Source: an uncultured Actinomycetota bacterium
GTDB lineage: Bacteria; Actinomycetota; Thermoleophilia; Solirubrobacterales; Solirubrobacteraceae
Assembly (NCBI GenBank): GCA_963771675.1
Contig: CAVYUJ010000008.1
Location: 311,855-335,854 of the forward strand
Reading direction: 5' to 3'
DNA length: 24,000 nucleotides
Shown here: piece by piece, positions 699-20,840 of the stretch
Layout of the letters: every line of letters starts with the position of its first letter
How positions within the stretch are numbered: position 1 is the stretch's first letter
Translations under genes and position numbers: made by a program
Notes under the pieces: generated by a model
Database searches by the model: none
Seen by the model: the letters and a program-made list of their open reading frames with translations, nothing else
What the model was told of the DNA's origin: nothing

Positions 699-1926
699 TC
701 AGGCTTCGTCCTGGGCGCCGAGGAGGTCGTCGAACTCGGCGACCATTCGGGAGCGACGCATGGTGCGTCGGCGCGCGTCGGACAGCTCTCGCACGTAGAC
801 CGCGCGGGTCACATTGGCATCGCGGTGTCCAAGCATGAACGCGACCTCGTCCACGCTTTCGCCAGCAAGCAGCGCGCGGCTTACAACGGTGTGACGGAAG
901 CTGTGCATCGAGGGCAGCGCTCCATGAGGAACCGGCACGGGATTCCCGCGCTCATCCAGGATGTGCAGGACTGGGAAGGTCGGATTCCCATCGTCATCGA
1001 CGGCTTTGACCTGAGCAGCACGCAAGGCCCGAGCGATGTTGCGCTGACTGAAAGGGCGGCCCGAACACGAAGCTGTCCGGGCGAACGAAGGCCGACGTCT
1101 GCCGGTGCGCAGCGAGAAGCCGTGCCAGCTGCGGCGGAATGGGGATCGTTCGCGCCGAGCCGTCAGTCTTGGTCGGGGCGAGGTTTCCGCGTCGATCAAC
1201 CTGATGTGCGAACTCGATCTGGGCGTCGTCGACGTCGTCGACGCGGAGGTTCGCCCAGGTGAGAGCCAGAAGCTCGGAGAGCCGCGCACCCGTCAGAGCA
1301 GCCACGGTGAACAGCGTGCGATACGGCTCGCCGGCGGCCGAGACGGTCTGCTCGAGTTCGCCGCGCTCGAAGATGCGGCGGCGCTTGCCCTTCGACGGCT
1401 TCGGTCGCTCCGAGGAGAGCATCATTGAGACCGGGTTCGTACCGACCCAGCCAAGCCGGCGGGCGGCGTACCGGTAGATCCGGTTCGTCACGCCGATGAC
1501 GATCACGATCGTGGACTCGGCGAGTCCATCCGCGCAAAGGTCGCGGACCAGCTTGGCGAGATCGTCCGGCGTGATCGTGTCGAGGCGACGTGCCCCGAAG
1601 CGGTCGAGCAGATGCTGCTCGACCGCGGTGCGGTAGCAAGACTCCGTCGCGGGCCTGAGGTCAAGCACCGGCCCCTGCAACCAATTCTCGGCAGCATCGG
1701 CTAAGCGGAGCCGGCTGTTATTAGCGACTTGCTCACCTCGAGCGCGCTGCGACAGGATCGTGTCTCGTGCCGCTCGAGCGGCGGTGATGCCTCCATCGAC
1801 CGTGCGCCAGCGCTGCTTGCCACCTCCGTCCTTGAAGCCCACCTCGTACACGCCGGTCGCCCGACGATAGATATTGCGCTCGACTCTGACCCGACGCGGC
1901 TGATTGCCTTCGCTCATCGCCGGCAC
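699..1926 (-). pseudogene. Tyrosine site-specific recombinase (phage-type integrase), frameshifted
   Basis: The N-terminal part is in ORF 994..1926 (SAM-like and core domains, 'ALTGARLSELLAL'). The C-terminal catalytic part is in ORF 699..1289 ('HSFRHTVVSRALLAGESVDEVAFMLGHRDANVTRAVY', i.e. HxxR..H..Y). The frames switch within 'gggcggccc' at about 1055-1066 ('PDSFVF|GRPFSQRNIARAL'). Confidence 0.85.
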
Positions 1927-2337
1927 CTACGCTGCGTGCGGGACGGTCGCAGCCAGATGCCGGGGCCGTCCGCCGCTCCGGCGCCAAGCGTCAAGATCTG
2001 CGCGACGGAAGTAGAGCTTGCAGTTCGGCCCGTCCTGCTCAGACGGAATTGCCCGTTCAGCGGCAAGCTTCCGGAGCGTGTCGCGATGGATCCCCAGGTA
2101 GTCAGCGGCGTGCCGTGAGTCGAACCACTCGTCCGCGCTACTCAGATCCCGGCTGGGGAATTGAGGGGCCACGGTTGCGAGCCGTTCGATCAGGCGCTCG
2201 GCAATCCGATCGATCAGAACGTCGAAGAGCGAGCTCGCGTCGACGGAGTCGATATCGCTGGCCGCATCGGGCCGGCTGCTCCGCATGCGAGGCGCCATGC
2301 TCGCGAGCTCGAGCCGGGGTGAGGCGTACGCTGCCAT
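1927..2337 (-). CDS. Excisionase/MerR-superfamily HTH DNA-binding protein (Xis-like)
   Basis: The C-terminal 'SRHAADYLGIHRDTLRKLAAERAIPSEQDGPNCKLYFRRADLDAW' is an excisionase-type winged HTH. The stop abuts the integrase ATG (1927/1926). The ATG at 2337 is preceded by AAGGAGG 8 nt upstream. Confidence 0.6.
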   Translation of the reverse strand: MAAYASPRLELASMAPRMRSSRPDAASDIDSVDASSLFDVLIDRIAERLIERLATVAPQFPSRDLSSADEWFDSRHAADYLGIHRDTLRKLAAERAIPSEQDGPNCKLYFRRADLDAWRRSGGRPRHLAATVPHAA

Positions 2338-2469
2338 CGTCGGGACCTCCTTCATAGGTCTCGGCCAGGCCCCGGGGTGTTCGCGCACCGCCGGGGCCAC
2401 GTCTTTGCTTATATCTAGAAGCTAGCAAGCGTGGCGGACGGACCCGCTTCCATCTGTAAGCTAGGTGCT

Positions 2470-3695: not shown

Positions 3696-4238
3696 TCAAC
3701 TTGCCGGAATCAACACCCGGTTGATGACGTGAATGACGCCGTTGGAGGTCATGACGTTCGTCTTCGTCACCTGCGCGTCCCCGACGTACACCTTGCCGGA
3801 GGAAACGCGGATGGGAACCGAGCCGCCCTCCAGCGTCTTTGCGGACTTCAGCTTGGTCACCTGCGCCGCGGTGACATCGCCCTTGACGACGTGATACAGA
3901 AGCACCGCCTTGAGCTTCGCGGGGTCCTTGGCGAGCTCGGCCAGCGTCGCCTTCGGAACCGCGGCGAAGGCGGCGTCGGTCGGGGCGAATACCGTCAACG
4001 GGCCGGGCCCCGACAGCGCACCCGCGAGGCCCGCCTGCTTGACGAGCGAAACGAGCGTCTTGAACTCGCCGGCGGCAACGGCCGTCTGGACGATGTTCGA
4101 CTGAGCCGGCGCAGCCGCCGTGCTCGACGTCGATGAGGTTGAGGCGGTGGTAGTCGAACTCGAGGACGAGCCGCCGCATGCGGCCAGCGTCGCGGCCAGC
4201 GCGACGCCGGCCAGAGTGGTGGCAAACAACTTCTTCAT
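3696..4238 (-). CDS. Fasciclin (FAS1) domain lipoprotein, paralog 1
   Basis: Signal peptide plus lipobox 'LAAC'. FAS1 motifs: 'FKTLVSLVKQAGLAGALSGPGPLTVFAPTDAAF', 'LLYHVV', 'NGVIHVINRVLIP'. Most aligned positions over the FAS1 domain match the ORF at 10879-11382. Confidence 0.9.
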   Translation of the reverse strand: MKKLFATTLAGVALAATLAACGGSSSSSTTTASTSSTSSTAAAPAQSNIVQTAVAAGEFKTLVSLVKQAGLAGALSGPGPLTVFAPTDAAFAAVPKATLAELAKDPAKLKAVLLYHVVKGDVTAAQVTKLKSAKTLEGGSVPIRVSSGKVYVGDAQVTKTNVMTSNGVIHVINRVLIPAS

Positions 4239-4274
4239 GGCTATCGGACTCCTTGTAGATACATCACGCGACGA

Positions 4275-4439
4275 TCAGCTCGTCGCGCTGGTTTCACGGA
4301 TACGAGGCGGCTCCGGCGCTGCCCTCCGTGCGGCGTCCTCGCGGCCGTCGAGCACGGCTGCGTAGATGAGCAGCGCGAGTGCCGCGGCGACGATCAACGT
4401 GACTAGCACGCCGACGACGAACAGGCCCGGGGTACTCAT
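4275..4439 (-). CDS. Small single-pass membrane protein (54 aa), absent from the supplied ORF track because it is under 60 aa
   Basis: My own translation: MSTPGLFVVGVLVTLIVAAALALLIYAAVLDGREDAARRAAPEPPRIRETSATS. The ATG overlaps the upstream stop as ATGA (4436-4439). It has one clear TM helix. Confidence 0.4.
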   Translation of the reverse strand: MSTPGLFVVGVLVTLIVAAALALLIYAAVLDGREDAARRAAPEPPRIRETSATS

Positions 4440-4654
4440 CGCTCGCCTCGCCGAAGCACGATTCCCCCGAGGGAGAGGATCGACGGCACCCAGATGCCCA
4501 CGAAGATCCCCTCCTGCCTATGCCCTCCGAACCACAGCACCACGGAGATCACGAACGACACGAACGCGGCGAACAGGATCAACGCCCGGGCACTCGCCTC
4601 GGGACGGGTCTTGACCAGCGTCTGCACTTTCTCCATCGATCGACCTTGACGCAC
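4436..4654 (-). CDS. Small two-TM membrane protein, unknown family
   Basis: 72-aa ORF with two hydrophobic helices ('ALILFAAFVSFVISVVLWF', 'GIFVGIWVPSILSLGGIVL'). It starts at the GTG at 4654 or the ATG at 4636 (MEKVQ..). Confidence 0.5.
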   Translation of the reverse strand: MRQGRSMEKVQTLVKTRPEASARALILFAAFVSFVISVVLWFGGHRQEGIFVGIWVPSILSLGGIVLRRGER

Positions 4655-4663
4655 GGCCGGCGA

Positions 4664-4888
4664 TCAGCCAGCGCAGCCGTGAGCCGCCAGGACCGCCGGA
4701 TCGGCGAACGCGGCAGCACCGCCCTGCGCATGCTGACCGAGCCGGAATCCGGGCTCAAAGCTCGACACGATCTGCCCGAAGGACGCACCACAGGACGACT
4801 TGATGGCCTGGCCCGGTCCTTGCGCGCTGGCCAGCGAAGGGACGGCGAGGCCTGTTATGGCAAGAGAAGCGGTGAGAAACCTCTTCAT
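4664..4888 (-). CDS. Small secreted protein (74 aa, signal peptide, two Cys), unknown family
   Basis: 'MKRFLTASLAITGLAVPSLASAQG' looks like a Sec signal peptide. AAGGAG sits upstream of the ATG. This is the first gene of a four-gene minus-strand operon ending in fasciclin. Confidence 0.5.
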   Translation of the reverse strand: MKRFLTASLAITGLAVPSLASAQGPGQAIKSSCGASFGQIVSSFEPGFRLGQHAQGGAAAFADPAVLAAHGCAG

Positions 4889-4942: not shown

Positions 4943-5035
4943 CTAGACTAGACAGACTCTCTACGGACTTTGGACAGCGTATCTAGTCGGGCCACTGCTG
5001 TCAAGCTTTCGTCGATAGTCTGTCGAAGGTGTCGG
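4943..5035 (-). promoter_or_regulatory. Candidate sigma-70-type promoter overlapped by 11-bp-periodic ACA repeats (LitR/CarH-like operator module, copy 1)
   Basis: On the minus strand: TTGACA (plus 4999-5004), 17 nt, TACGCT (plus 4976-4981). Repeats upstream are ACAGACTATCG/ACGAAAGCTTG/ACAGCAGTGGC. Repeats downstream on the opposite strand are ACAGACTCTCT/ACGGACTTTGG/ACAGCGTATCT. It aligns with the module at 19598-19672 (shared 'ACTCTCTAC(A/G)GAACTT', 'CTAGA'). Confidence 0.45.
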
Positions 5036-6774: not shown

Positions 6775-9039
<2,265 letters not shown>

Positions 9040-9187
9040 GCTCTCGAGTCTCCTTTCGACTGAGCGCCGGAAATGTGTCGTTCAGCCGAAGGCCTCTCCC
9101 GCCCCAAAGGGCCGGCGTGCCCGGGCCACGTGGGCCGTACTGACGAGCGACGCCCGTTCGGGGATACTGCCCCCCGGCACCGCTCAG
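9040..9187 (-). promoter_or_regulatory. Conserved structured 5' leader of ftsH (copy A of a two-copy cis-regulatory RNA candidate)
   Basis: About 85% nucleotide identity with the region upstream of htpX (22472-22623). The closing helix is CUGAGCG..GCCGG / CCGGCGCUCAG, and its 3' strand ends 3 nt before the SD GAAAGGAG. The internal hairpins keep their stems but differ in their loops. Confidence 0.6.
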
Positions 9188-9271
9188 TGCAGCGTCGGGC
9201 CAACCGTCGCCACGAACTCCTGCGACCTGCAGGCCCGCGGCAGTTCGAGAGCCAAGGCGTCATCCTCCGGG

Positions 9272-10018
9272 TCATCGGGCCAGCTCCAGCGTGTTGAGCA
9301 TCTGGCCAAGGCGCTGGTCAAGCCCGGCTGACGACACGCCCAGCGTGCTGGCGATCCTGCCGCGGGGGATCCCGGCGATCATCATCGCGAGCACTGCCTG
9401 CTCCTCGCCGTCAAATACCTGGTGCATCCTGACCGCCACCGCGGGCGGGATCGTCGGCAATATCTGTCGGCCGGCGAGTGTGCTGCGGATCGTTTGGCAC
9501 AGCTCCGCGCCGGTGGCGGCTGTGCTGACGAGCGCGTCGGCCTCAGCGAGGACCGCCGCGGCGGCGAGCAGGCCGTTGGGATAGTCGCAGCGGAGCACGA
9601 CCCGGGGCGGTCGGGATAGGCGTTGGAGCGCCCTGCTGACCCACAGGCCATCGTGATCGCGGAGCTTGTAGTCGACGACGGCGGCGTCGATCCGCTCGCG
9701 CTCAGCAGTGGCGAGCGTCTCCTCGGCGGACGAGACCGCGGCGATGACGCGAAGGTTCGCCTGAGCGTCGAGCAGCTCTGATAATTCTCGGCGTGGCGCC
9801 AGATGATCGCCAGCGACGAGCACGCATGCCGGGCGCTCAGGCGCGGCATCAGCGAGCTCGGCAGGCGCAATAAAGACCCCGGTGTGCCGCCCGAGCGGCT
9901 GGAGCGCTGCGAGCAGACCGTGGTGCGCCGGCTTGGTGGGTGGCCCGCCGGCAAGACCGGGCACACCGGTTGTGGGTCGCGATCGGGGGATGCGTGATTG
10001 TGGGAGCGGGTAGGGCAT
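9272..10018 (-). CDS. Orphan response regulator, atypical receiver domain plus LuxR/FixJ-type HTH
   Basis: REC-like region: 'VLVAGDH...IDAAVVDYKLRDHDG...RVVLRCD...ADALVSTA'. The phospho-acceptor Asp is retained, but the first acidic pair is GD and the conserved T/S and K positions are not canonical. C-terminal LuxR-type HTH: 'EEQAVLAMMIAGIPRGRIASTLGVSSAGLDQRLGQMLNTL'. A Pro-rich N-terminal extension of about 60 aa is present if the ATG at 10018 is used. No histidine kinase is present in the window. Confidence 0.75.
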   Translation of the reverse strand: MPYPLPQSRIPRSRPTTGVPGLAGGPPTKPAHHGLLAALQPLGRHTGVFIAPAELADAAPERPACVLVAGDHLAPRRELSELLDAQANLRVIAAVSSAEETLATAERERIDAAVVDYKLRDHDGLWVSRALQRLSRPPRVVLRCDYPNGLLAAAAVLAEADALVSTAATGAELCQTIRSTLAGRQILPTIPPAVAVRMHQVFDGEEQAVLAMMIAGIPRGRIASTLGVSSAGLDQRLGQMLNTLELAR

Positions 10019-10025
10019 CGTCGGG

Positions 10026-10808
10026 TCAGGCGGGTTGGAGGGTTCCGGCGAACACTTGCCAGGCGAGGGCGGATTTGGCGAATAGGCTGAGCAGCATGTA
10101 GACGCGCTCGCCGTACAGGTAGTCGCGCCAGCGGCCGGCGCGGCGGTACTGCAGGGCCATGTTGAGGGCGAAGATGTTGAAGAAGGCGAAGATCGAGGCG
10201 TAGATCGCGTACACGAACGCGGGCGGGTCCTGGGCGCCGATCAGGTAGATCACCACGGCGATCCAGGGCACGATCCCGGCGAGGCAGCCGAACCAGTAGG
10301 CGGTCCAGTTGGTGCGTTTGGTGGTCTGGTTGTGCAGCTCCATGATCCAGCCGAACAGGATCATCGTGGCGTTGAGGGCGAAGATGAGGATCAGGCTGGC
10401 GATGTCGTAGATGCCGACGAGCATCGCGATCACGACCATCATCAGCGAGGAGGACAGGGAGTATTCGATCCAGCGGGCGGGCTGGATCCCGCGGGTGAGG
10501 TTGCGCTCATACCAGGCGTGCAGGCGCGGTGAGGCCAGCGCGGCGTGCGCGATTGCGGAGATGAGCAGGAACGCGGCGACCAGCGGGCCGATCCGCACCC
10601 GGAGCAGCTCGTCGGGGACGGCGACGAGCTTGTTCGTGGCGCTGTCCATGCGCAGGAACGCGCTGGTCACCGGCAGCGAGAACGAGCTGGCCAGCGCCAG
10701 GATCGCCAGCGCCTGGGTGAGGTGAAGGACCGAGAGTCCGGCGTTCCAGCGGCGCAGGCTGTGCAGCCGATCGGCGGCGGTGGGGGGAGAAGTGGTGAGC
10801 GTCGTCAT
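10026..10808 (-). CDS. Heliorhodopsin (HeR), 7-TM retinal protein
   Basis: Long stretches match heliorhodopsin 48C12 as I remember it. 'RWIEYSLSSSLMMVVIAMLVGIYDIASLILIFALNATMILFGW' vs 'RWVEYSLSSSVMIVLIAQICGIADIVALLAIFGVNASMILFGW'. 'WFGCLAGIVPWIAVVIYLIG' vs 'WFGCIAGIVPWIGLLIYVIA'. 'GERVYMLLSLFAKSALAWQVFAGTLQPA' vs 'GERAYIVLSLVAKSALAWQIFSGTLIPA'. The Schiff-base Lys (..FAKSALAWQ), counterion Glu (RWIEY) and both His positions are present. Confidence 0.9.
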   Translation of the reverse strand: MTTLTTSPPTAADRLHSLRRWNAGLSVLHLTQALAILALASSFSLPVTSAFLRMDSATNKLVAVPDELLRVRIGPLVAAFLLISAIAHAALASPRLHAWYERNLTRGIQPARWIEYSLSSSLMMVVIAMLVGIYDIASLILIFALNATMILFGWIMELHNQTTKRTNWTAYWFGCLAGIVPWIAVVIYLIGAQDPPAFVYAIYASIFAFFNIFALNMALQYRRAGRWRDYLYGERVYMLLSLFAKSALAWQVFAGTLQPA

Positions 10809-10830
10809 TGAAGCGGGCGGTAGACGGTCT

Positions 10831-10859
10831 GCAGGCCGCCGCGCGAAGCGGCGGCCTGC
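10831..10859 (-). terminator. 12-bp GC hairpin between the fasciclin-2 stop and the heliorhodopsin start (terminator/attenuator candidate)
   Basis: GCAGGCCGCCGC-GCGAA-GCGGCGGCCTGC (plus-strand reading). It lies in the 70-nt gap between 10879 and 10808. There is no U-tract. Confidence 0.45.
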
Positions 10860-10878
10860 CGAAGGGAGGGAGTGAGCG

Positions 10879-11382
10879 TCAGCGGGGGATCAGCACCTGG
10901 TTGATGACGTGGATCACGCCGTTGGAGGCGCCGATGTCGGCCTTGATGACGCGTGCGCCGCCGACCGTGACCGTGCCGTGGTTGACGCGAACCTTCAGCG
11001 ACTGGCCGTTGAGCGTCTTGATCGAGCGCAGCTTGACGACCTTCGCGGCGGTCAGCTTGCCCTTGGCCACGTGGTAGAGCAGGACCGCGCGCAGCTTCGC
11101 CTTGTCTTTGGCCAGCGCCTTCAGGGTCGCCTTGGGCACCTTCGCGAACGCCGCGTCGGTTGGGGCGAACACGGTGAGCGGCCCCTTGCCTTCAAGCGCG
11201 CCGGCCAGCCCCGCCTGCTTGACCAGCTTGACGAGCGTCTTGAACTGCCCGGCCGCGACGGCGGTCTGGACGATGTTGGGCTTGGCGGGCTTCGCCGACG
11301 CCATCGACACCACGGGCGCGATGGCCGAGAGTGACAACGCGCCGACGGCAGCCAGCGCTACGAACTGATGTTTGAACCTCAT
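10879..11382 (-). CDS. Fasciclin (FAS1) domain secreted protein, paralog 2
   Basis: The ATG at 11382 (MRFKHQF..) is preceded by AAGGAGA. It has a signal peptide and the same FAS1 motifs as 3696-4238 ('FKTLVKLVKQAGLAGALEGKGPLTVFAPTDAAF', 'NGVIHVINQVLIP'). The track ORF start at 11487 is an extension. Confidence 0.9.
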   Translation of the reverse strand: MRFKHQFVALAAVGALSLSAIAPVVSMASAKPAKPNIVQTAVAAGQFKTLVKLVKQAGLAGALEGKGPLTVFAPTDAAFAKVPKATLKALAKDKAKLRAVLLYHVAKGKLTAAKVVKLRSIKTLNGQSLKVRVNHGTVTVGGARVIKADIGASNGVIHVINQVLIPR

Positions 11383-11392
11383 CCCGGTCTCC

Positions 11393-11474
11393 TTAGACAG
11401 AGGTTTGACAATGATTGAACGAATGTACCCTCGTGGGCCGTCACTGTCAAGGTTCTGTCTAACGTGGGTATAAT
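11393..11474. promoter_or_regulatory. Divergent promoter region with a large inverted repeat and 11-bp-periodic ACA repeats (LitR/CarH-like operator module, copy 2)
   Basis: The inverted-repeat arms are TTAGACAGAGGTTTGACA (11393-11410) and TGTCAAGGTTCTGTCTAA (11445-11462). The minus-strand promoter is TTGACA (11445-11450), 17 nt, TACATT (11422-11427) for fasciclin-2. The plus-strand TATAAT (11469-11474) lies 6 nt before the litR GTG. The 14-mer TGTCAAGGTTCTGT is identical at 19647-19660. Confidence 0.5.
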
Positions 11475-11480
11475 GATTTC

Positions 11481-12347
11481 GTGTCATTTCCCGCAGAGGG
11501 TCTTCGGATCGGCGAGTTCGCCCGCCGGGTCGGTGTCAGCGCCGCGGTGCTGCGCGCCTGGGAGCGCCGGTACGGGCTGCTCGATCCGGTGCGATCGCCC
11601 GGTGGCTTTCGGCTCTACACCGCGCAGGACGCCGAGCGCGTCGGGCGGATGCAGCAGGGTCTCGATCAGGGCCTCTCGGCGGCCGAGGCAGCGCGCGCGG
11701 CGCGAGCGAGCGCCAGGCCCTCAGAAGGCCGCCTGCTCGAAGACGCAGCTGAACGCCTGCTGGCGGCGATCCGCGCCTACGACGAGCCCGGCGTGCACGA
11801 GGTCCTGGACGAGAGCTTCGCGGCGTTCGGCCTGGAAGCCGTGCTGCGCCAGCTCATCCTTCCCGCCCTCACGCAGGTCGGGGCCGAGTGGGAGCAGGAG
11901 ACGCTCGCGGTCAGCCAGGAGCACTTCGCCAGCAACGTGATCCGCGCCCGGCTGCTGTCCCTGGCCCGCTTATGGGGCCGCGGCGGGGGACCGGTGGCGG
12001 TCCTGGCCTGCGCCCCCGGCGAGCAGCACGACATCAGCCTGCTGGCCTTCGGACTGGTGCTGCGATCGCACGGCTGGCGCATCATCTTCCTGGGCGCCGA
12101 CACGCCGATCACCACGCTGGCGCAAGCCGCCGAGGGCACACGGCCCACGCTGACCGTCCTGGCCAGCTTTGACCCGGCGCTCCTGGAGGTGGAGTCAACC
12201 GCCATCCGCCGCCTCGCGAGAGAGCTCCCGCTCGTGCTGAGCGGTCCCGGGGCAACCGAGCAGCTGTGCAAGAGGCTTCGCGTGCCGCGGCTCGACGGCG
12301 ACCTGATCATCGCAGCCCATGAGATCGCCCGCAGCACAACGGCCTGA
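11481..12347 (+). CDS. litR: MerR-family, B12-binding-domain transcriptional regulator (LitR/CarH-type light-responsive regulator)
   Basis: The N-terminal MerR HTH is 'LRIGEFARRVGVSAAVLRAWERRYGLLDPVRSPGGFRLY'. The Wx9EH signature 'WEQETLAVSQEH' of AdoCbl-CarH-type photoreceptors is present. The B12-binding-domain His motif is 'GEQHDIS', followed by a Rossmann-like 'RIIFLGADTP'. The GTG start lies 6 nt after TATAAT, which suggests a leaderless mRNA. Confidence 0.85.
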   Translation: MSFPAEGLRIGEFARRVGVSAAVLRAWERRYGLLDPVRSPGGFRLYTAQDAERVGRMQQGLDQGLSAAEAARAARASARPSEGRLLEDAAERLLAAIRAYDEPGVHEVLDESFAAFGLEAVLRQLILPALTQVGAEWEQETLAVSQEHFASNVIRARLLSLARLWGRGGGPVAVLACAPGEQHDISLLAFGLVLRSHGWRIIFLGADTPITTLAQAAEGTRPTLTVLASFDPALLEVESTAIRRLARELPLVLSGPGATEQLCKRLRVPRLDGDLIIAAHEIARSTTA

Positions 12348-12843
12348 CGCGTCCTGGGCCAGGCGGATTATCGCGCTGGTCCTCGAGAACCCCGGGGACG
12401 CGGTTTACGGGGCGATCGCCGTGGGCGCTCTGCTCGCGGCCGAGACTCCGCGGCAGGAGACGTACGCCAAGACCGTCGCGGCAGTGATCATCACGCTCTT
12501 GCTCTACTGGCTGGCGCACTCCTACGCCGACCTGGCCGGAGAACGGCTGCGATCGGGCGCGAGGCTGACCGCCCAAGGGCTGTTGGCGAGGATGCTGCGC
12601 GAGCTGCCGATCCTCATCGGCGCGGCAATCCCGCTGGGCACGCTGCTGATCTGCTGGATCGCCGGAACCGGCCTGTCCGCCGCCGTCCTCGCGGCGGTGT
12701 GGACCTCGGCCGGGATCATCCTGGTCATCGAGCTGGCCGCCGGACTCCGCGGCCGCCTCAGGGGCCGGCAGCTGCTCTCCCAAGCCCTCGTCGGCGCGTC
12801 GCTCGGATCGCTGATCATCCTCCTCAGGGCGCTGCTCCACTGA
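12319..12843 (+). CDS. Integral membrane protein, unknown family (about 4-5 TM)
   Basis: 174-aa ORF with hydrophobic helices ('AVYGAIAVGALLAA', 'VAAVIITLLLYWLAH', 'LPILIGAAIPLGTLLICWIAG', 'AAVLAAVWTSAGIILVIELAA'). It overlaps the litR 3' end by 29 nt. Confidence 0.55.
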   Translation: MRSPAAQRPDASWARRIIALVLENPGDAVYGAIAVGALLAAETPRQETYAKTVAAVIITLLLYWLAHSYADLAGERLRSGARLTAQGLLARMLRELPILIGAAIPLGTLLICWIAGTGLSAAVLAAVWTSAGIILVIELAAGLRGRLRGRQLLSQALVGASLGSLIILLRALLH

Positions 12844-12885
12844 TACGCCAGTGCCGGAACTGCGGGCCACCGCCGACTTCGCCCG

Positions 12886-12935
12886 CCCGGCTCGACGGCG
12901 ACCTCGTCAGCACCGCACACGGCGCGGTCCCCTGA
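12886..12935 (+). repeat. Second, diverged copy of the litR 3' end (orphan gene fragment)
   Basis: The 16-mer GGCTCGACGGCGACCT is identical at 12288-12303 and 12888-12903. The in-frame translation 'RLDGDLVSTAHGAVP*' parallels the litR C-terminus 'RLDGDLIIAAHEIARSTTA*'. Weaker similarity extends about 40 nt upstream. Confidence 0.5.
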
Positions 12936-12950
12936 CCGCGCGTCTCCCGG

Positions 12951-13416
12951 TTACCAGCCGAGCGTGCCGGGTGGTCCTTTGAACGGGCCGGTCAGGTCGG
13001 AGGTGATCCAGCCTCCGTAGAAGTCGCTCTCCTGCGCGTGAACGCGCTCGTCGTCCAGCCAGGCCGCGTCGACGCGTCCGGGGTAGAAGGCGACGTGATC
13101 GCGCAGCGCCTCATACTCGGGCGCCGGGTTCGGGTAGCACCAGCCCACCGCGATGCATCGCCGTCCGTCGACGATCGCGTCGAGATACCGTGCGGCGCCC
13201 TTGAACTCGCACCTGGTCGGGCGTGTCCGGCTCTCGGTCAGGAACGTCGCGGCGAACGTCTGCCGGTGGGATGTAGATCGTCGGTGGATGGCTGGTCTCG
13301 AGCACCCGCAGAGCATGGGTGGACTCGGCGAGCACTTCCCCGGCCAGCTCGACTCGGACCCGACGCCGGCAGGGCACGACCGCGGGTGGCCGCGGGTACT
13401 CCCAGACGCGCTCCAT
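12951..13416 (-). pseudogene. DUF427 domain protein, frameshifted
   Basis: The N-terminal part 'MERVWEYPRPPAVVP..RVRVELAGEVLAEST..LRVLETSHPPTIYIPPADV' is in ORF 13111..13647. The C-terminal part 'TRCEFKGAARYLD...VAFYPGRVDAAWLDDERV..QESDFYGGWIT' is in ORF 12951..13316. The frames switch at about 13255-13270. Confidence 0.8.
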
Positions 13417-15287: not shown

Positions 15288-16275
15288 CGTGTTTCTCCTT
15301 CTCTGAGGTGGTGGTGTGCTGCGCCCAGCCGCTGAGCTGGGCGCACCGCGCCCAGAGCTGCTCGCGCTCCTGCTGGGTCTCTCGTGTCCACGGGAGCAGG
15401 TGCGTGGGCCGCGGCCGGCGGTCGTGCCAGAACCGGCCCGTGCTGCGGCCGGGCTCATCCGCGGCGCCGAGCCAGACGATCGTGTCGGCGCCCTGCTCGG
15501 GCGTCCTCAGCAGCGGTCGCGTCGGCCTGTAGAACCGCGGCAGGGAGGTCTGCACGCCCGGGGTGTCGACCCATCCGGGGTGCATCGAGTGCACGACGAC
15601 GCCGCGAGCTCGCGCAGCCGCTGCGCCCACAGTTCGGTGAGGATCACCTGCGCGCGCTTGGTCCGCGCGTACGCCGCCGGCCCGTCGAACTCTCCGCGCT
15701 CGCTCTGCAGGTCATCGGCCCTGATCCGCTGCGTGTACATGCCGCCGGAGGAGACGTTGACGATCCGCGCCGGAGCGCTGCGCTCCAGCAGCGGCAGCAG
15801 CAGAGCCGTGAGCAGGAACGGGCCGAGCACGTTGGTCGCGAACGTCACCTCGATCCCGTCCGGCGACAGCGCGCGGGTCGGGGGCAGGACGCCGGCGTTG
15901 TTGACCAGCACGTCGAGGCGGTCTGCCTGCGCTGTGAAGCGCTCGGCGAACTGCCTGACCGACTGAAGATCGCTCAGATCACACAGCCCGACATGCACGT
16001 CGCGGTTGCCGGACCGCTCCGCGATCCCCGCGCGCGCCCGCTGGCCGCGTTCCGCGCTGCGGACGACCAGCCACACGGTCGCGCCGAGGCGCGCGAACCC
16101 CTCCGCGGCCGCGAGCCCGAGCCCCGAGCTGGCGCCCGTCGACCATCACCACCCCGCCGTCCAGCGACGGGAGCTCCGAGGCGCTCCAGCCGCGACGGCG
16201 GATCCGGTAGCCCACGTTCGTGTAGCCACCGATCACGCTGCGGTCAAGCACGCTGTCGAGCACGGAACCCGTCAT
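15262..16275 (-). pseudogene. Short-chain dehydrogenase/reductase (SDR), two frameshifts
   Basis: There are three frame pieces. The first is 'MTGSVLDSV...GGVVMV' followed by an extra base in GTCGACGGG (about 16139-16142). This restores 'TGASSGLGLAAAEGFARLGATVWLVVRSAERG...NNAG...SSGGMY...YARTKRAQV' (ORF 15507..16076). A second shift near 15600-15615 leads to 'VVVHSMHPGWVDTPG...' (ORF 15262..15630). Confidence 0.8.
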
Positions 16276-17531
16276 GCGCTCGCCGCCAGATCGTGCGGCC
16301 CGCTCCGACCCGGCCGTCCACGCGCTGGGCGGAGGGGAGTTGAGAGTGGGGCTTGGTCAGCAGCAGCTGGACGTCGCAGATCCGCCGCTCGGCGAATCCG
16401 GCCTCGCAGTAGGCGAGGTAGAGCGTCCAGAGCCGGCGGAAGCGCTCGTCGTAGCCCGAGCTCCGCGAGCCGTCGGCGTGGGCGCTGAAGTTCGTCGCGC
16501 CAGCGCCGCAGCGTCTCGACGTAGTGGGCGGTGATGTCCTCGAGACCAGCGACCTGCATGTCGGTTCGCCGGGCGACGTCGCGGGTGATGCACCTCGAGC
16601 GAGGGCAGGCACCCGCCCGGGAAGATGTAGGTGTTGATGAACGACTTCGCTGCCTTCTCGACCTCGTAGGCGCGGTCATCGATCGTGATCGCCTGCAGCA
16701 GCATCGCCCCGTCGGGCGCGAGCAGCTCCGAGCACTTGGCGAAGAACGTGCCGAACTGCGCGCCAGCCGACCGCCTCGATCATCTCGATCGAGACGAGCT
16801 TGTCGTAGCGGCCGCGCAGGTCGCGGTAGTCCTCCATCAGCACGGTGACCCGGTCCTCCAGTCCGGCCCGCCGCACCTGCTCGAGCGCGTAGTCGTGCTG
16901 CTCGCGCGAGATCGTCGTCGTGGTGACGTGGCAGCCGCGGGTCGCTGGCGGCGTAGAGCGCGAACGCTCCCCAGCCGGTTCCGATCTCGAGCACGCGATC
17001 CCGCGGACCGAGCTCGAGCGTCTCGCAGATCCGCTCGAGCTTTGCGACCTGAGCCTGCTCGAGCGTCATCCCGTGGTGCTCGAACACCGCGCACGAGTAG
17101 CTCATCGTCGGATCGAGCATCCGCGCGAACAGCTCGTTGCCGAGGTCGTAGTGGGCGGCGATGTCGCGCCGGCGCGCGCCGCCGCGTGGCGCGGACGCAG
17201 CGAGCGCGCGGCGCGCTGCAGCGGCCAGCCGCACCGGCGCCAGCCGCGCGCGAAGGCGGTCGAGGCCGCCGGCGTTGCGCGCCGCGAGCCTGATCACCGC
17301 GACCAGGTCCGGCGAGTCCCACAGGCCCTCGAGCGTACGCCTCCGCCAGTCCGCGGCTGCCGCGCAGCAGCATCGGCCAGACTCGCGAGGAGTGCAGATC
17401 GAACCGTCGCGACCGGGGGCCCGGAGCCGTACGCGTGCCGCTCGCCGTCCTCGACGACGACCAGGCGTGCCGACACTCGATCCGCCGCAGCAGGATCGAC
17501 ACGATCCAGCGGGACGCGCGTCGACGGTCAT
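16272..17531 (-). pseudogene. Cyclopropane-fatty-acyl-phospholipid-synthase-like SAM-dependent methyltransferase, at least 5 frameshifts
   Basis: Family-typical pieces are scattered over three frames: 'RLVVVEDGERHAYGSGPPVATVR', 'LLRGSRGLAEAY', 'LWDSPDLVAVIRL...DIAAHYDLGNELFARMLDPTMSYSCAVFE...VLEIGTGWGAFALYAA', 'TTISREQHDYA..RVTVLMEDYRDLRGRYDKLVSIEMIEAVG', 'LLQAITIDDRAYEVEKAAKSFINTYIFPGGCLPSL', 'DITAHYVETLRRWR', 'RFRRLWTLYLAYCEAGFAERRICDVQLLLTKP'. The stop of one frame overlaps the SDR ATG as ATGA (16272-16275). Confidence 0.85.
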
Positions 17532-18283
17532 GCGCCGACCGCCTTCGGGTGCGGGTGGACGCGGCACGCCGGCGAGCTTCAGCGCCAGCGCGTGCGCGTA
17601 GATCAGCGCCAGCACGCGCACCGTGCGCGAGCGGGTAGCGCGCGGTCATCCGCGCCATCGACGCACGGGTCAGCTCCCGGCGGCGCAGCGACGAGCGTCG
17701 CGTCGAACACGGCGCGTCGCCCGCGCGGCTCGAGTCGATGTGGACCGACAGCGTCCGGCCCGGCGCGGTCGCCCGCGCGTCGTAGCGGTGATCCATGCCC
17801 ATGAACGGCGACACGTGCATCGCCTTCTCGAACTGCGCCGTGAGCACGCCGCCAGTCCGGCGCCGGCCGCAGCACGTAGGCGTGCCGCTCCCCCCAGGGC
17901 GTGTTCGTCACCTCCGCGACCACCGCCTCGCACGCGCTCGCCGGCCGGGTCGAAGCAGTAGTAGAAGCTGACCGGGTTGAAGCAGTGCCCGAACGAGCGC
18001 AGCTGGGTCAGCACGCGGATCGGGCCCGCCGGGCCGCTCGCCGGTCGTGCTCGCTGCACCGCTCGCGCACCGCGCGGTCGAGCGGCACGCGCGGGATCGC
18101 CGAGGTAGTCGCGGCGGCGAAAGCGGACCAGCCCCGGGACGCGGGCGACGAGCCGGCCGCCCAGCAGCCGCGGCAGCTCGTCGAGGTCGATGTAGGCGAG
18201 CGCCAGCCGATGGCGTGAACTCGCGCCGCGGCTCGCGAGCGCCGGTGGCGAATCGTGCCCTCGTAGATGCAGCTCGCGCTCAC
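17532..18283 (-). pseudogene. DUF1365 family protein, multiple frameshifts
   Basis: Pieces: 'SCIYEGTIRHRR', 'LAYIDLDELPRLLGGRLVARVPGLVRFRRRDYLGDP', 'IRVLTQLRSFGHCFNPVSFYYCFD', 'VAEVTNTPWGERHAYVL', 'KAMHVSPFMGMDHRYDARATAPGRTLSVHID', 'RVLALIYAHALALKLAG'. They lie in different frames. The boundaries are approximate. Confidence 0.8.
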
Positions 18284-19534
18284 AGCCGTGCTCCGAAGCG
18301 CTCGGCCGACGCGCAGCGCGCTCGCCACGCCGTCCTCGTGGAACCCCCAGCCCCAGTACGCGCCGCAGAAGTGCGTGCGGTTGCGCCCGTCTGATCTCGT
18401 GCGACCCGCGCCTGCGCCTGCACCCCGCCGTCCGTGTACACCGGATGCGCGTAGGGGATCGTGCGGATGACCCGAGCCGGGATCGATCGCCTCGGTGCGG
18501 TTGAGCGTCACGCAGAACTCGCGCTCGGCGCGCAGCGACTGCAGGCGGTTCATGTGGTAGGTGACCGTGCGTCGCCGCCTTGGGCTCGGCGAGCAGGTGG
18601 TAGTTCCAGCTCGCCCACGCCCGCCGGCGACGGGGCAGCATCCGCGCATCGGTGTGCAGCACGGCCTCGTTGGGCTGATACGGGATCGCGCCGAGGATCT
18701 CGCGCTCGCGGCCGCTGGCGTCGGCCAGCAGCGCCAGCGCCTGGTCCGAATGGGTCGCCAGCACCACCTCGTCGAACCGCTCCGCCTCGCCGCCCGCGCG
18801 GCGTCACCAGGACGTGATCATGATGGCGGGTGACCGCCTGAACCGGGGTGCGCAGCCGCAGCCGGTCGCGAGAACGGAGCCGTCAGCGCCTCGACGTACC
18901 GAGCCGAGCCCCCGCGAATCGTCCGCCAGCGACGGCCGGCCGCGGAACGACAGCATCCCGTGATTGTCGAAGAACTCGGCCAAGAAACGAGCCGGGAAGC
19001 TCCACATCTGCCGCGGCGTCCGCCGACCACACCGCCGAGGCCTGCGGCACGATCAGCCGCTCGATGAACGCATGTGAGAACCGATGCTGCTCCAGCCACT
19101 CGCGCAGCGAGAGCATCGGGCGCACGATCATCGAGCAGCTCACGCGCGGCACGGTTGAACCGCGCCAGGTCGGCGACCATGCGGTGAAACCAGGGGGTGA
19201 CGAGATGTGCTCGTTTGGCGAACAGGGCGTTCGGTGAGCCGCTGCCGTACTCGAAATCGCCGATGCCGTCGCTGACGCTGAAGCTCATCGTCGACGGCTG
19301 CCACGCGACGCCCAGCCGCCGGAGCAGCCGCTCGAAGTTCGGGTAGTTGCGATCGTTGAACACGATGAACCCCGTGTCGACCTCGTGCGTCTCGTCCGCC
19401 GTGTCGACCCGGATCGTGTTCGTGTGACCTCCGGCATACCCGGCTGCCTCGAACACCGTGACCTCGTGCGCCGGGTGCAGCAGATGGGCGACCACCAGTC
19501 CGGAAACACCTGCGCCAACCACAGCGATCTTCAT
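18284..19534 (-). pseudogene. FAD/NAD(P)-binding amine-oxidase-like oxidoreductase, at least 6 frameshifts
   Basis: The N-terminus 'MKIAVVGAGVSGLVVAHLL..VTVFEAAGYAGGHTNT' (GxGxxG) is intact to 'FNRAARELLDD' (shift at about 19115-19125 in 'catcgggcgc'). The following pieces are each in a new frame: 'MLSLREWLEQHRFSHAFIERLIVPQASAVWSAD', 'MWSFPARFLAEFFDNHGMLSFRGRP', 'WRTIRGGSARYVEALTAPF', 'DRLRLRTPVQAVTRHHDHVLVTPRG', 'FDEVVLATHSDQALALL...AIPYQPNEAVLHTDARMLPRRR.AWASWNY', 'TVTYHMNRLQSL..', 'HFCGAYWGWGFHEDG'. Confidence 0.85.
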
Positions 19535-19597
19535 GCCCCACCTACCGCGACGGCGCTAACGACCATACGAATCTCTTGCAACCCGACCACACTCTCT

Positions 19598-19672
19598 ACA
19601 GAACTTCGACAACCTTGTGCCGAGTCTAGCGACATGGCCCTCCTTTTGTCAAGGTTCTGTTCAAGGTTTGTA
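19598..19672 (-). promoter_or_regulatory. Candidate promoter of the 7-gene operon, overlapped by 11-bp-periodic ACA repeats (LitR/CarH-like operator module, copy 3)
   Basis: On the minus strand: ACAAACCTTGA/ACAGAACCTTG/ACAAAAGGAGG, with ACA every 11 nt. TTGACA is at plus 19647-19652, followed by 18 nt and TAGACT at plus 19623-19628. On the opposite strand downstream are ACAGAACTTCG/ACAACCTTGTG (19598-19619). 'AACCTTGACAA' fits the published CarH half-site pattern nAnnTnnACAn. Confidence 0.5.
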
Positions 19673-20840
19673 CCGGCTGTGCGCTCGGGCCCGGATGCCC
19701 GGGCTCTGGCCAATTCGTGGCTGCTCGACCAAGCGGTTGAAGGTGCGGCGGTGCCGCTTCGTGGGAGATGGGTCGCTCGTCCGGAGAACCTGGCGCGAGG
19801 CTCTCGCTGGGGTGACGCGGCGCGCGGGTCTGCTCTGGCAGGCGGGTTGTTGGGGTGGCGTCGTGGTGGTGCTGTCGTAGCGCTCCGGCGTGGGCGTGAG
19901 CGGTCGGATCGCGTCGGGCCTTGATCAGGCTGGCGACGGTGGTCGCCGCGAGCACCGCCGCGATGAGCGCAAGGGACGGTCCGGTGGGTATCTCGGGGAT
20001 GGAGTGATGTTGCTGGTGGGCGAATTCGAGGACGAGCTTGGCGCCGATGAAGGCGAGGATCGCGGCGAGGCCGGTTGAGAGGTAGATGAGCCGGCCCAGC
20101 AGGCCGGAGATCAGGAAGAAGAGGGCGCGCAGGCCGAGCAGCGCGAAGGCGTTGGCGGCGAAGACGATGTAGGCGTGATCGGTGACGCCGAACACGGCGG
20201 GGATCGAGTCGAAGGCGAAGAGGAGGTCGGTAGTGCCGATCGCCAGCAGCGCGAGGAGCAGCGGCGTGAACGCCCGGCGGCCGTGGCGGCGGGTGATGAT
20301 TCGACCGTGGTCGTAGGTGTCGGTGATCGGCAGCTTCCGCCGGGCGGCTGCGACGAGCGCGTTGTCTTCGACGCTCGGGTCGTGGTTACGGTGGCGGTAG
20401 AGCTGGACGGCGGTCGCGAGCAGCGTCAGCCCGAAGATGAGGAACATGAACGAGAAGGTGGCCAGCAGCGCGGCGCCGAGCGCGATGAACACCGCCCGCA
20501 GCGCGAGCGCGATCACGATCCCGATCGTCAGCACCTTGGGCTGCTGCTCGGCCGGGACGGCGAACGCGCCGAGGATGATCACGAACACGAACAGGTTGTC
20601 GACCGACAGGCTCTTCTCGACCAGGTAACCGGCGAAGTACTGGGTGGCGAGATCCCAGCCGGCGATCGCGCCGATCCCGAGGCCGAACAGCACCGCGACC
20701 GCGATGTAGAACAGCGACCAGCGGAGCGCCTCACCAAGCGAAACCCTGCGTGATCGACGGCCGAGCAGCAGCCAATCGAGCGCAAGCAGCCCCGTGATCA
20801 GCGCCAGCGTGAGGACCCAGACCGCAGCGCTGAAATGCAC
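19626..20840 (-). CDS. terC: TerC-family integral membrane protein
   Basis: The TerC core is 'YFAGYLVEKSLSVDNLFVFVIILG..' and '..GTTDLLFAFDSIPAVFGVTDHAYIVFAANAFALLGLRALFF'. The likely GTG start at 20840 is preceded by AAGGGAAG. The track ORF start at 21215 overlaps exoD. The unusually long hydrophilic C-terminal tail (about 90 aa) runs into the promoter module at 19626-19672. Confidence 0.8.
   Translation of the reverse strand: MHFSAAVWVLTLALITGLLALDWLLLGRRSRRVSLGEALRWSLFYIAVAVLFGLGIGAIAGWDLATQYFAGYLVEKSLSVDNLFVFVIILGAFAVPAEQQPKVLTIGIVIALALRAVFIALGAALLATFSFMFLIFGLTLLATAVQLYRHRNHDPSVEDNALVAAARRKLPITDTYDHGRIITRRHGRRAFTPLLLALLAIGTTDLLFAFDSIPAVFGVTDHAYIVFAANAFALLGLRALFFLISGLLGRLIYLSTGLAAILAFIGAKLVLEFAHQQHHSIPEIPTGPSLALIAAVLAATTVASLIKARRDPTAHAHAGALRQHHHDATPTTRLPEQTRAPRHPSESLAPGSPDERPISHEAAPPHLQPLGRAATNWPEPGHPGPSAQPVQTLNRTLTKGGPCR

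Follow-up and report, generated by a model that had tools for sequence, protein, structure and literature searches.

A 24,000-nucleotide stretch of DNA from an uncultured Actinomycetota bacterium of the Solirubrobacteraceae (GenBank assembly GCA_963771675.1, contig CAVYUJ010000008.1, positions 311,855 to 335,854; hereafter the window, in whose own coordinates positions are given) encodes a MerR-type, B12-binding regulator, LitR (litR/carH, 11481–12347, plus strand, 288 amino acids, GTG start), and a divergent gene for a secreted fasciclin (FAS1) protein, whose ATG lies at 11382 on the minus strand. The 98-bp intergenic region between them (11383–11480) carries what we read as two CarH-type operators laid over the promoters of both genes, and a heliorhodopsin gene follows the fasciclin gene on the same strand. 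We consider it likely, from comparative sequence analysis, that LitR represses both promoters through the two operators until light releases it, and somewhat more likely than not that this control reaches heliorhodopsin by transcriptional read-through. The window has a G+C content of 69% and belongs to a 5.55-Mb genome, 87% complete, whose nearest public relatives are uncultured Solirubrobacterales.

Pfam matches along LitR follow the order MerR_1 (residues 9–75, 53 bits), B12-binding_2 (PF02607, residues 90–158, 51 bits) and B12-binding (PF02310, residues 173–259). Among solved structures, the closest are those of Thermus thermophilus CarH/LitR (TtCarH; 5c8d, 3whp), which give a full-length alignment over residues 9–268 with an E-value of 9e-34 (about 1e-33). 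The MerR-type winged helix-turn-helix (HTH; 11505–11705, plus strand) contains the recognition helix RAWERRY at residues 25–31, where CarH proteins have a defined RxWERRY motif (PMC9304148). Across a family alignment of seven members at 47–75% identity, R25-A-W-E-(R/Q)-R-Y31 is nearly invariant; one member has Gln29, and the Trp, Glu, Arg30 and Tyr do not vary.

The residues that handle the cofactor are conserved to a similar degree. The Wx9EH motif, WEQETLAVSQEH (11889–11924, plus strand), falls in the four-helix-bundle subdomain, the cap over the adenosyl group, and its W137, E147 and H148 align with W131, E141 and H142 of TtCarH. His183, within GEQHDIS (12027–12029, plus strand), aligns with H177 of TtCarH and is the predicted lower axial ligand of the cobalt. 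All four residues, and with them the Glu of the ExH motif (E181), are invariant in the family alignment, as are G198 and D207, the equivalents of the TtCarH oligomer-interface residues G192 and D201. The histidine motif (E181-x-H183) reads ExHxxS here and ExHxxG in TtCarH, so that the D/ExHxxG/P rule ends in Ser. At a further interface residue, the G160 equivalent is Gly in LitR and Asp in its relatives. An earlier note on this DNA had picked out the MerR HTH, the Wx9EH motif and the GEQHDIS histidine from the sequence alone; the Pfam matches agree, and the alignment with a characterized CarH places the Trp, Glu and both His residues where that protein has them. The other sequence statements of the note hold as well, apart from one coordinate that is off by a single nucleotide. 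Domain order, motifs and operator repeats together support well the assignment of LitR as a predicted class I, adenosylcobalamin (AdoCbl)-dependent, CarH/LitR-type B12 photoreceptor regulator, and we infer its B12 binding, light response, repression and oligomeric state from the same comparisons. LitR is predicted to be a further member of the CarH/LitR family, with an unusual regulon.

The CarH repeat has been defined experimentally as 5′-nnnnTnnACAn-3′, in tandem 11-bp units that overlap the −35 or −10 element (PMC9304148). Two sets of three such units lie in the intergenic region, separated by 21 bp. The right operator (11444–11476, minus strand) is composed of TCATTATACCC, a degenerate unit that holds the litR −10 element, ACGTTAGACAG, and AACCTTGACAG, which holds the fasciclin −35 element. 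The left operator (11390–11422, plus strand) is composed of TCCTTAGACAG, AGGTTTGACAA and the degenerate TGATTGAACGA, which has ACG in place of ACA. Each set matches three nnnnTnnACAn units at 11 of 12 positions, and the right operator is the top match in the genome to a position weight matrix of the site (41.8 bits). The pattern TnnACA-N5-TnnACA-N5-TnnAC has one match in the window against 0.00 expected from 100 dinucleotide shuffles. Genome-wide, three phased nnnnTnnACAn units matching at 11 or more of 12 positions occur eight times, compared with twice in each of three shuffles; seven of the eight fall in operator-like intergenic loci, two of them beside a litR gene and three more in the window. 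The predicted assignment of the 98-bp region as a CarH-type operator shared by two divergent promoters is well supported.

What had been noted previously in this region was an inverted repeat with 18-nucleotide arms, together with ACA triplets 11 nucleotides apart on each strand. The triplet spacing is plainly visible, and the arms, TTAGACAGAGGTTTGACA (11393–11410) and TGTCAAGGTTCTGTCTAA (11445–11462), are real, being complementary at 15 of 18 positions; a repeat search lengthens them to 22 nucleotides (11393–11414 and 11441–11462) at 82%, 26 nucleotides apart. Set against the CarH unit, however, the apparent inverted repeat is better read as two separate three-repeat operators in opposite orientation.

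The operators coincide with the predicted promoters. On the minus strand, the fasciclin promoter (11422–11450) consists of TTGACA (11450–11445), a 17-bp spacer and TACATT (11427–11422). It is the sole sigma-70-like site between 9000 and 13000, with 10 of 12 matches where 0.3 such sites are expected, and relatives carry the equivalent −10 elements TACCTT, TACGAT and TATTCT. Its −35 element is the last repeat of the right operator and its −10 element abuts the left operator, which spans the −10/+1 region and the early transcribed sequence (approximately +1 to +25). The normal 17-bp spacer rules out a MerR-style activation of this promoter. On the plus strand, the litR −10 element TATAAT (11469–11474) sits inside the first right-operator repeat without a recognizable −35 element, and only 6 nucleotides separate it from the GTG at 11481. 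No litR start lies upstream of this GTG, because an in-frame TAA occupies 11460–11462, and none lies downstream, because the HTH begins at residue 8.

Comparison with relatives bears on this short interval. We scanned one genome per species and collected 80 loci encoding LitR relatives of 46–93% identity. The litR −10 element is kept as TAnnnT in all aligned loci except one, and the start codon follows it by 6–8 nucleotides in 56 of the 59 loci with a callable open reading frame (ORF; 40 at 6, 9 at 7 and 7 at 8 nucleotides), even though some loci start with GTG and others with ATG and the spacer differs in sequence. Since 6–8 nucleotides is the normal distance from a −10 element to +1, this conserved spacing strongly supports the prediction that litR mRNA is leaderless, as had been suspected from the single TATAAT–GTG interval.

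The operators are conserved over the same loci. A right operator with the consensus cTGTCAAGnnTtTGTCcAAgGTcTGTAtAaT is present in 63 of 81 related upstream regions, and its most informative positions are exactly the TGT (ACA) and A (T) of the repeat. Among the 63 loci with a right set, 55 also have a second triple-repeat set (at least 9 of 12 matches). Its orientation differs between two clades. In the near clade (LitR at least 62% identical; loci L001–L035) the second set is inverted, and in 23 loci it begins at a distance of 53–55 bp from the right set, whereas in the far clade (46–53% identical; L036–L080) it has the same orientation as the right set, usually at a distance of 43–44 bp that keeps the two in 11-bp register. 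Because the second set recurs while its orientation flips, two operators are the family norm and palindromic symmetry a feature of one clade; the spacing of the sets is best described as following the geometry of the divergent promoters. A palindromic core, TGTACA, is frequent in the far clade.

The same comparison identifies the secreted fasciclin, and not heliorhodopsin, as the conserved partner of LitR and the gene predicted to be driven directly by the divergent promoter. The fasciclin of the window (10879–11382, minus strand) is a 167-amino-acid protein with a signal peptide, an AAGGAG ribosome-binding site and a Pfam Fasciclin match (E 4e-41). In 47 of the 80 loci a divergent fasciclin gene lies no more than 1.1 kb from LitR: it is the immediate neighbor in 12, is separated from LitR by a conserved gene for a 72-amino-acid membrane protein in 13, and is spaced otherwise in 22. 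Heliorhodopsin accompanies LitR in only 4 of the 80 loci and is predicted to be optional cargo on a conserved LitR–fasciclin module.

The heliorhodopsin gene itself (10026–10808, minus strand, 260 amino acids) begins 70 nucleotides past the fasciclin stop. Its product matches Pfam Heliorhodopsin (PF18761) over positions 1–242 of 242 (E 8e-100), a full-length seven-helix domain, and aligns with TaHeR (6is6; E 6.5e-77) at both the retinal Lys, in FAKSALAWQ, and the counterion Glu, in RWIEYS (RW(I/F)EYS). A receiver-domain gene (9272–10018, minus strand; Pfam Response_reg, 36 bits) lies 7 nucleotides beyond heliorhodopsin and probably shares its transcription unit; among the related LitR loci it occurs only in the closest relative, L003. 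Between fasciclin and heliorhodopsin, 20 nucleotides past the fasciclin stop, the minus strand can form a hairpin (10831–10859) with a perfect 12-bp GC stem and a 5-nucleotide loop, for which the centroid fold is the stem alone; the heliorhodopsin ATG follows 23 nucleotides downstream. The 70-nucleotide gap contains neither a Shine-Dalgarno sequence nor promoter-like hexamers. At the corresponding position, relatives have a hairpin of different sequence whether or not they carry heliorhodopsin, and no locus has a U-tract behind the stem. The hairpin thus belongs to the fasciclin 3′ end as a conserved element, and it could act as a leaky terminator or as an mRNA stabilizer.

In the order, 37 of the 301 genomes sampled carry heliorhodopsin; the 23 other genomes from this genus all lack it. 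Among the 30 heliorhodopsin loci of the order that were fetched, LitR lies near heliorhodopsin, besides the window, in L082, which belongs to another family, and in L093, where litR, a membrane-protein gene and heliorhodopsin share one strand. L082 retains the order litR, divergent fasciclin, hairpin (here two strong ones) and heliorhodopsin, together with both repeat sets, with LitR 51% and heliorhodopsin 64% identical to those of the window. Weak repeat matches near heliorhodopsin in L116 and L138 were rejected as LitR sites; they are ordinary promoters or AT-rich sequence. Four heliorhodopsin-free loci (L007, L010, L011 and L019) have, about 95 nucleotides past the fasciclin stop and after the hairpin, an ORF that starts MTTLTLPHPPAGERLR, resembling the heliorhodopsin N-terminus (MTTLTTSPPTAADRLH in the window, MTTLTHPQSSDAERLR in L001); further on the similarity is lost, and the ORF ends after about 60 codons. 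These 5′ stubs suggest that heliorhodopsin was once present in the four loci and later deleted.

We propose the following mechanism. In the dark, AdoCbl-loaded LitR oligomers, tetramers by analogy with Thermus CarH, would bind both operators. The right operator (11444–11476) would block the litR −10 and the fasciclin −35 elements, while the left operator (11390–11422) would block the fasciclin −10 element, its start site and the first approximately 25 transcribed bases. Photolysis of the Co–C bond in the light would break up the oligomer and open both promoters. The outcome would be a light-induced, autoregulated litR, probably together with a downstream gene for a 174-amino-acid membrane protein, and a light-induced fasciclin. 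Heliorhodopsin and the receiver-domain gene, which have no visible promoter of their own, would be expressed at a lower level through partial read-through of the hairpin, as light-induced cargo of the LitR regulon and not as an upstream sensor.

Several findings weigh against this explanation. The match of LitR to the Rossmann B12-binding family PF02310 scores 30.8 bits, just under the cut-off of 32.1. The residue after Trp137 is Glu where TtCarH has the His that forms its bis-His photoproduct, and Gln occupies the position of R176, the Arg of the R176–D201 dimer salt bridge in TtCarH; oligomer details and photochemistry may therefore differ from those of TtCarH. CobS was not found in the 87%-complete genome. 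The 12-bp GC hairpin, kept even where heliorhodopsin is absent, may be a real terminator. Finally, LitR lies within 1.5 kb in only 3 of 30 fetched heliorhodopsin loci of the order, and in a phylum sample of 400 genomes, 111 of them with heliorhodopsin, neither LitR nor fasciclin lies near the gene in any of the 29 closest, which rules out a general linkage of heliorhodopsin with LitR. The earlier note had pictured a two-tier light circuit with the heliorhodopsin operon downstream of a LitR-type promoter. Heliorhodopsin does follow fasciclin on the same strand, and its induction by light as LitR-regulon cargo is plausible, but it is fasciclin that would be driven directly, with heliorhodopsin behind a hairpin that lacks a U-tract, and a signaling cascade between the two photoreceptors finds no support.

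The rival to be taken most seriously concerns this last step. LitR may control litR and fasciclin, with the hairpin as an efficient terminator and with heliorhodopsin and the receiver-domain gene transcribed from an unrecognized promoter in the fasciclin gene or the gap, so that the adjacency of the photoreceptors would carry no regulatory link; we regard this as a real possibility that falls short of being probable. The perfect 12-bp GC stem stands directly after the fasciclin stop, and a hairpin is found at the same place in the heliorhodopsin-free loci L007, L010, L011, L019 and L023, a persistence that favors insulation; moreover, related loci appear to have lost heliorhodopsin down to a 5′ stub but kept fasciclin, and most heliorhodopsins have no LitR linkage. 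Mycobacterial RNA polymerase, on the other hand, terminates poorly without a U-tract, and the absence of one in every locus weakens the case for efficient termination. The stem is also only 23 nucleotides from the heliorhodopsin ATG, −10- or −35-like hexamers are missing from the gap and, the fasciclin promoter aside, from 9000–13000, and the order of litR, divergent fasciclin and heliorhodopsin is kept between two families at 51–64% protein identity. With no alternative promoter visible and the gene order conserved across two families, the balance tilts toward read-through, and co-regulation of heliorhodopsin and the receiver-domain gene by partial passage through the hairpin is a prediction that we hold with moderate confidence.

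Other rivals question what LitR senses or where it acts. It is very unlikely, in our view, that LitR binds B12 and DNA without sensing light, either reporting cobalamin availability or acting independently of B12 like Myxococcus CarA. With Glu following Trp137 and Gln at the R176 position, it does differ from the best-studied photoreceptor, and with no CobS found, the B12 supply itself could be the signal. Yet the predicted regulon includes a gene for a retinal photoreceptor, as well as a lipid-modification cluster of a kind known from photo-oxidative stress regulons, and the whole Wx9EH motif and the His ligand are invariant in this family, whereas CarA-type proteins lack the Trp of the motif (PMC9304148). 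It is scarcely credible that the repeats serve only as promoter elements or are bound by an unrelated regulator, with LitR acting elsewhere. TTGACA and TATAAT are themselves promoter hexamers, and some conservation is to be expected of them. But repeats outside the promoter elements, namely the TTAGACA units and the left set, which lies in transcribed sequence, are conserved as well and keep a strict 11-bp phase; litR genes accompany the sites in more than 60 loci, and seven of the eight best genome matches fall in operator-like loci where about two matches would arise by chance.

Set beside known systems, the locus most resembles that of T. thermophilus (5C8D, 5C8E, 3WHP), with which it shares the three-part protein architecture, the Wx9EH, His-ligand and RxWERRY motifs, a regulator gene divergent from its target promoter, and an operator of three tandem 11-bp nnnnTnnACAn repeats that includes the −35 TTGACA. 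It differs in having two triple-repeat operators instead of one, in a predicted leaderless litR with an operator over its −10 element, and in its putative targets, which are fasciclin and heliorhodopsin and not crtB. The CarH proteins of Bacillus megaterium and Myxococcales are AdoCbl-dependent repressors whose operators comprise four or five 11-bp repeats overlapping the −35 or −10 element, and the number of repeats and of degenerate ‘dr’ units varies between species (PMC9304148). Here, by contrast, the array is split 3 + 3, with the second half inverted in the near clade, and no carotenoid genes were found in the genome. The shared ground with other LitR proteins lies partly in the targets. 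Streptomyces coelicolor LitR, a class I protein encoded in litR–litS, is an actinobacterial MerR-B12 light regulator, and light regulons in this system and in the class II LitR systems of Pseudomonas and Burkholderia include cyclopropane-fatty-acid-synthase-type clusters and photolyase. An amine-oxidase/DUF1365/cyclopropane-fatty-acid-synthase cluster carries an operator here too; unlike those systems, however, LitR has no adjacent sigma-factor partner, and the photolyase gene has no operator of this type.

Of the ten frequent heliorhodopsin neighbors given by Cho et al. 2024 (PMC11109279), one is a ‘MerR family transcriptional regulator’; cobalamin is not mentioned in their main text, and their supplements contain no match for MerR, B12 or fasciclin. 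What differs here is that the MerR regulator is identified as CarH-type, together with its operator. Our literature search found no link of heliorhodopsin with CarH or LitR, nor of fasciclin with LitR.

These comparisons extend the CarH/LitR family to uncultured soil Thermoleophilia and their relatives, apparently without control of carotenoid synthesis there, and they define a conserved dual-operator, leaderless design that fits whole on one 98-bp fragment. They also point to secreted fasciclins as the main light-induced output, for which the CarH literature that we searched offers no counterpart. For heliorhodopsins, the locus offers a concrete prediction: in this lineage the protein would be made only after a B12 sensor has detected light, so that it would more probably serve the light or photo-oxidative response than act as the primary light sensor.

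At least five operator loci of LitR type are present in the genome. A second dual operator in the window (4945–5030; left set 4945–4977, right set 4998–5030), with the minus-strand promoter TTGACA-17-TACGCT, precedes genes (3696–4888, minus strand) for a 74-amino-acid secreted protein, 72- and 54-amino-acid membrane proteins and a fasciclin lipoprotein (3696–4238). Both of these small membrane proteins recur in 13 related loci and, on contig C7, beside a second LitR (LitR2). The third operator (19591–19678), with two good repeats in the left set and 11 of 12 matches in the right set, precedes the amine-oxidase/DUF1365/cyclopropane-fatty-acid-synthase cluster (approximately 16272–19534, minus strand), a gene set known from light and singlet-oxygen regulons. 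Its genes match their Pfam families only in fragments and in different frames, pointing to many frameshifts in the cluster as assembled, through decay or long-read indel errors; litR, fasciclin and heliorhodopsin, unlike this cluster, are intact. On contig C7 (C7:199372–200311), a dual operator at C7:200226 lies between LitR2, 68.6% identical to LitR, and a divergent membrane-protein/fasciclin operon, and a single, perfect triple repeat (12 of 12; C7:198532–198564) lies in the leader of a gene for a 279-amino-acid protein of unassigned function, between a TACTAT −10 element and the ATG.

Three of the four fasciclin genes of the genome stand behind LitR-type operators. The fourth (C7:196326–196919) has none, and the idea that all fasciclin genes are LitR targets was discarded. 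Photolyase was rejected as a target as well, since the one photolyase gene of the genome, on C10, lacks an operator of LitR type. No member of the phytoene/squalene synthase family (PF00494) was found in the 87%-complete genome, although the control genomes gave matches; carotenogenesis, the canonical CarH output, and an obvious endogenous route to retinal thus appear to be absent. A Pfam BCD (Blh) search found no match in the genome, but none in the control genomes either. A PduO-type adenosyltransferase, which makes AdoCbl, is encoded, and its presence together with the failure to find CobS suggests that B12 is probably salvaged or imported. The organism thus seems to lack both carotenoid and de novo B12 synthesis, and yet encodes a retinal protein and B12 photoreceptors.

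The fasciclins, which stand divergent from LitR in over half of the loci and behind operators in most of the copies in this genome, would be the core light-induced output of this LitR family. They might also be AstaP-like carriers of pigment or chromophore that, in an organism for which no phytoene synthase was found, scavenge external carotenoid or retinal in the light for the co-transcribed heliorhodopsin, making the operon a ‘chromophore-harvesting plus receptor’ unit under a B12 photoreceptor. We think this carrier role very unlikely. Like AstaP (PDB 8C18), a carotenoid-binding FAS1 protein of green algae that is induced by photo-oxidative stress, the window fasciclin is secreted and has a single FAS1 domain, and the two match at the domain level (E 2.4e-12). 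However, it is nearer to adhesion-type FAS1 domains. Carotenoid binding by AstaP is a neofunctionalization, and a cyanobacterial homolog does not bind carotenoids (PMC10147662).

The remaining features of the window lie around this module. Rfam searches at gathering thresholds found no RNA family match in the window. Beyond the receiver-domain gene, after a gap of 232 nucleotides, lies ftsH (6775–9039, minus strand). At the left end of the window (994–2400, minus strand), a phage-integrase-like ORF with weak SAM-like and central-domain matches accompanies an HTH_17 excisionase-like ORF, which hints at a mobile-element remnant near the light-response gene cluster. The ORF for the 174-amino-acid membrane protein (12319–12843, plus strand) overlaps the litR stop by 29 nucleotides and is probably co-transcribed with litR; it has no Pfam match and no assigned family. 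It is restricted to the closest relatives, while DUF427 directly follows litR in others, and it is flanked by two copies of a 32-nucleotide sequence, the final 32 nucleotides of litR (12288–12319) being duplicated at 81% identity exactly 600 nucleotides downstream (12888–12919). The bracketing copies, the restricted distribution and the position of DUF427 elsewhere together suggest that the membrane-protein gene was inserted behind litR.

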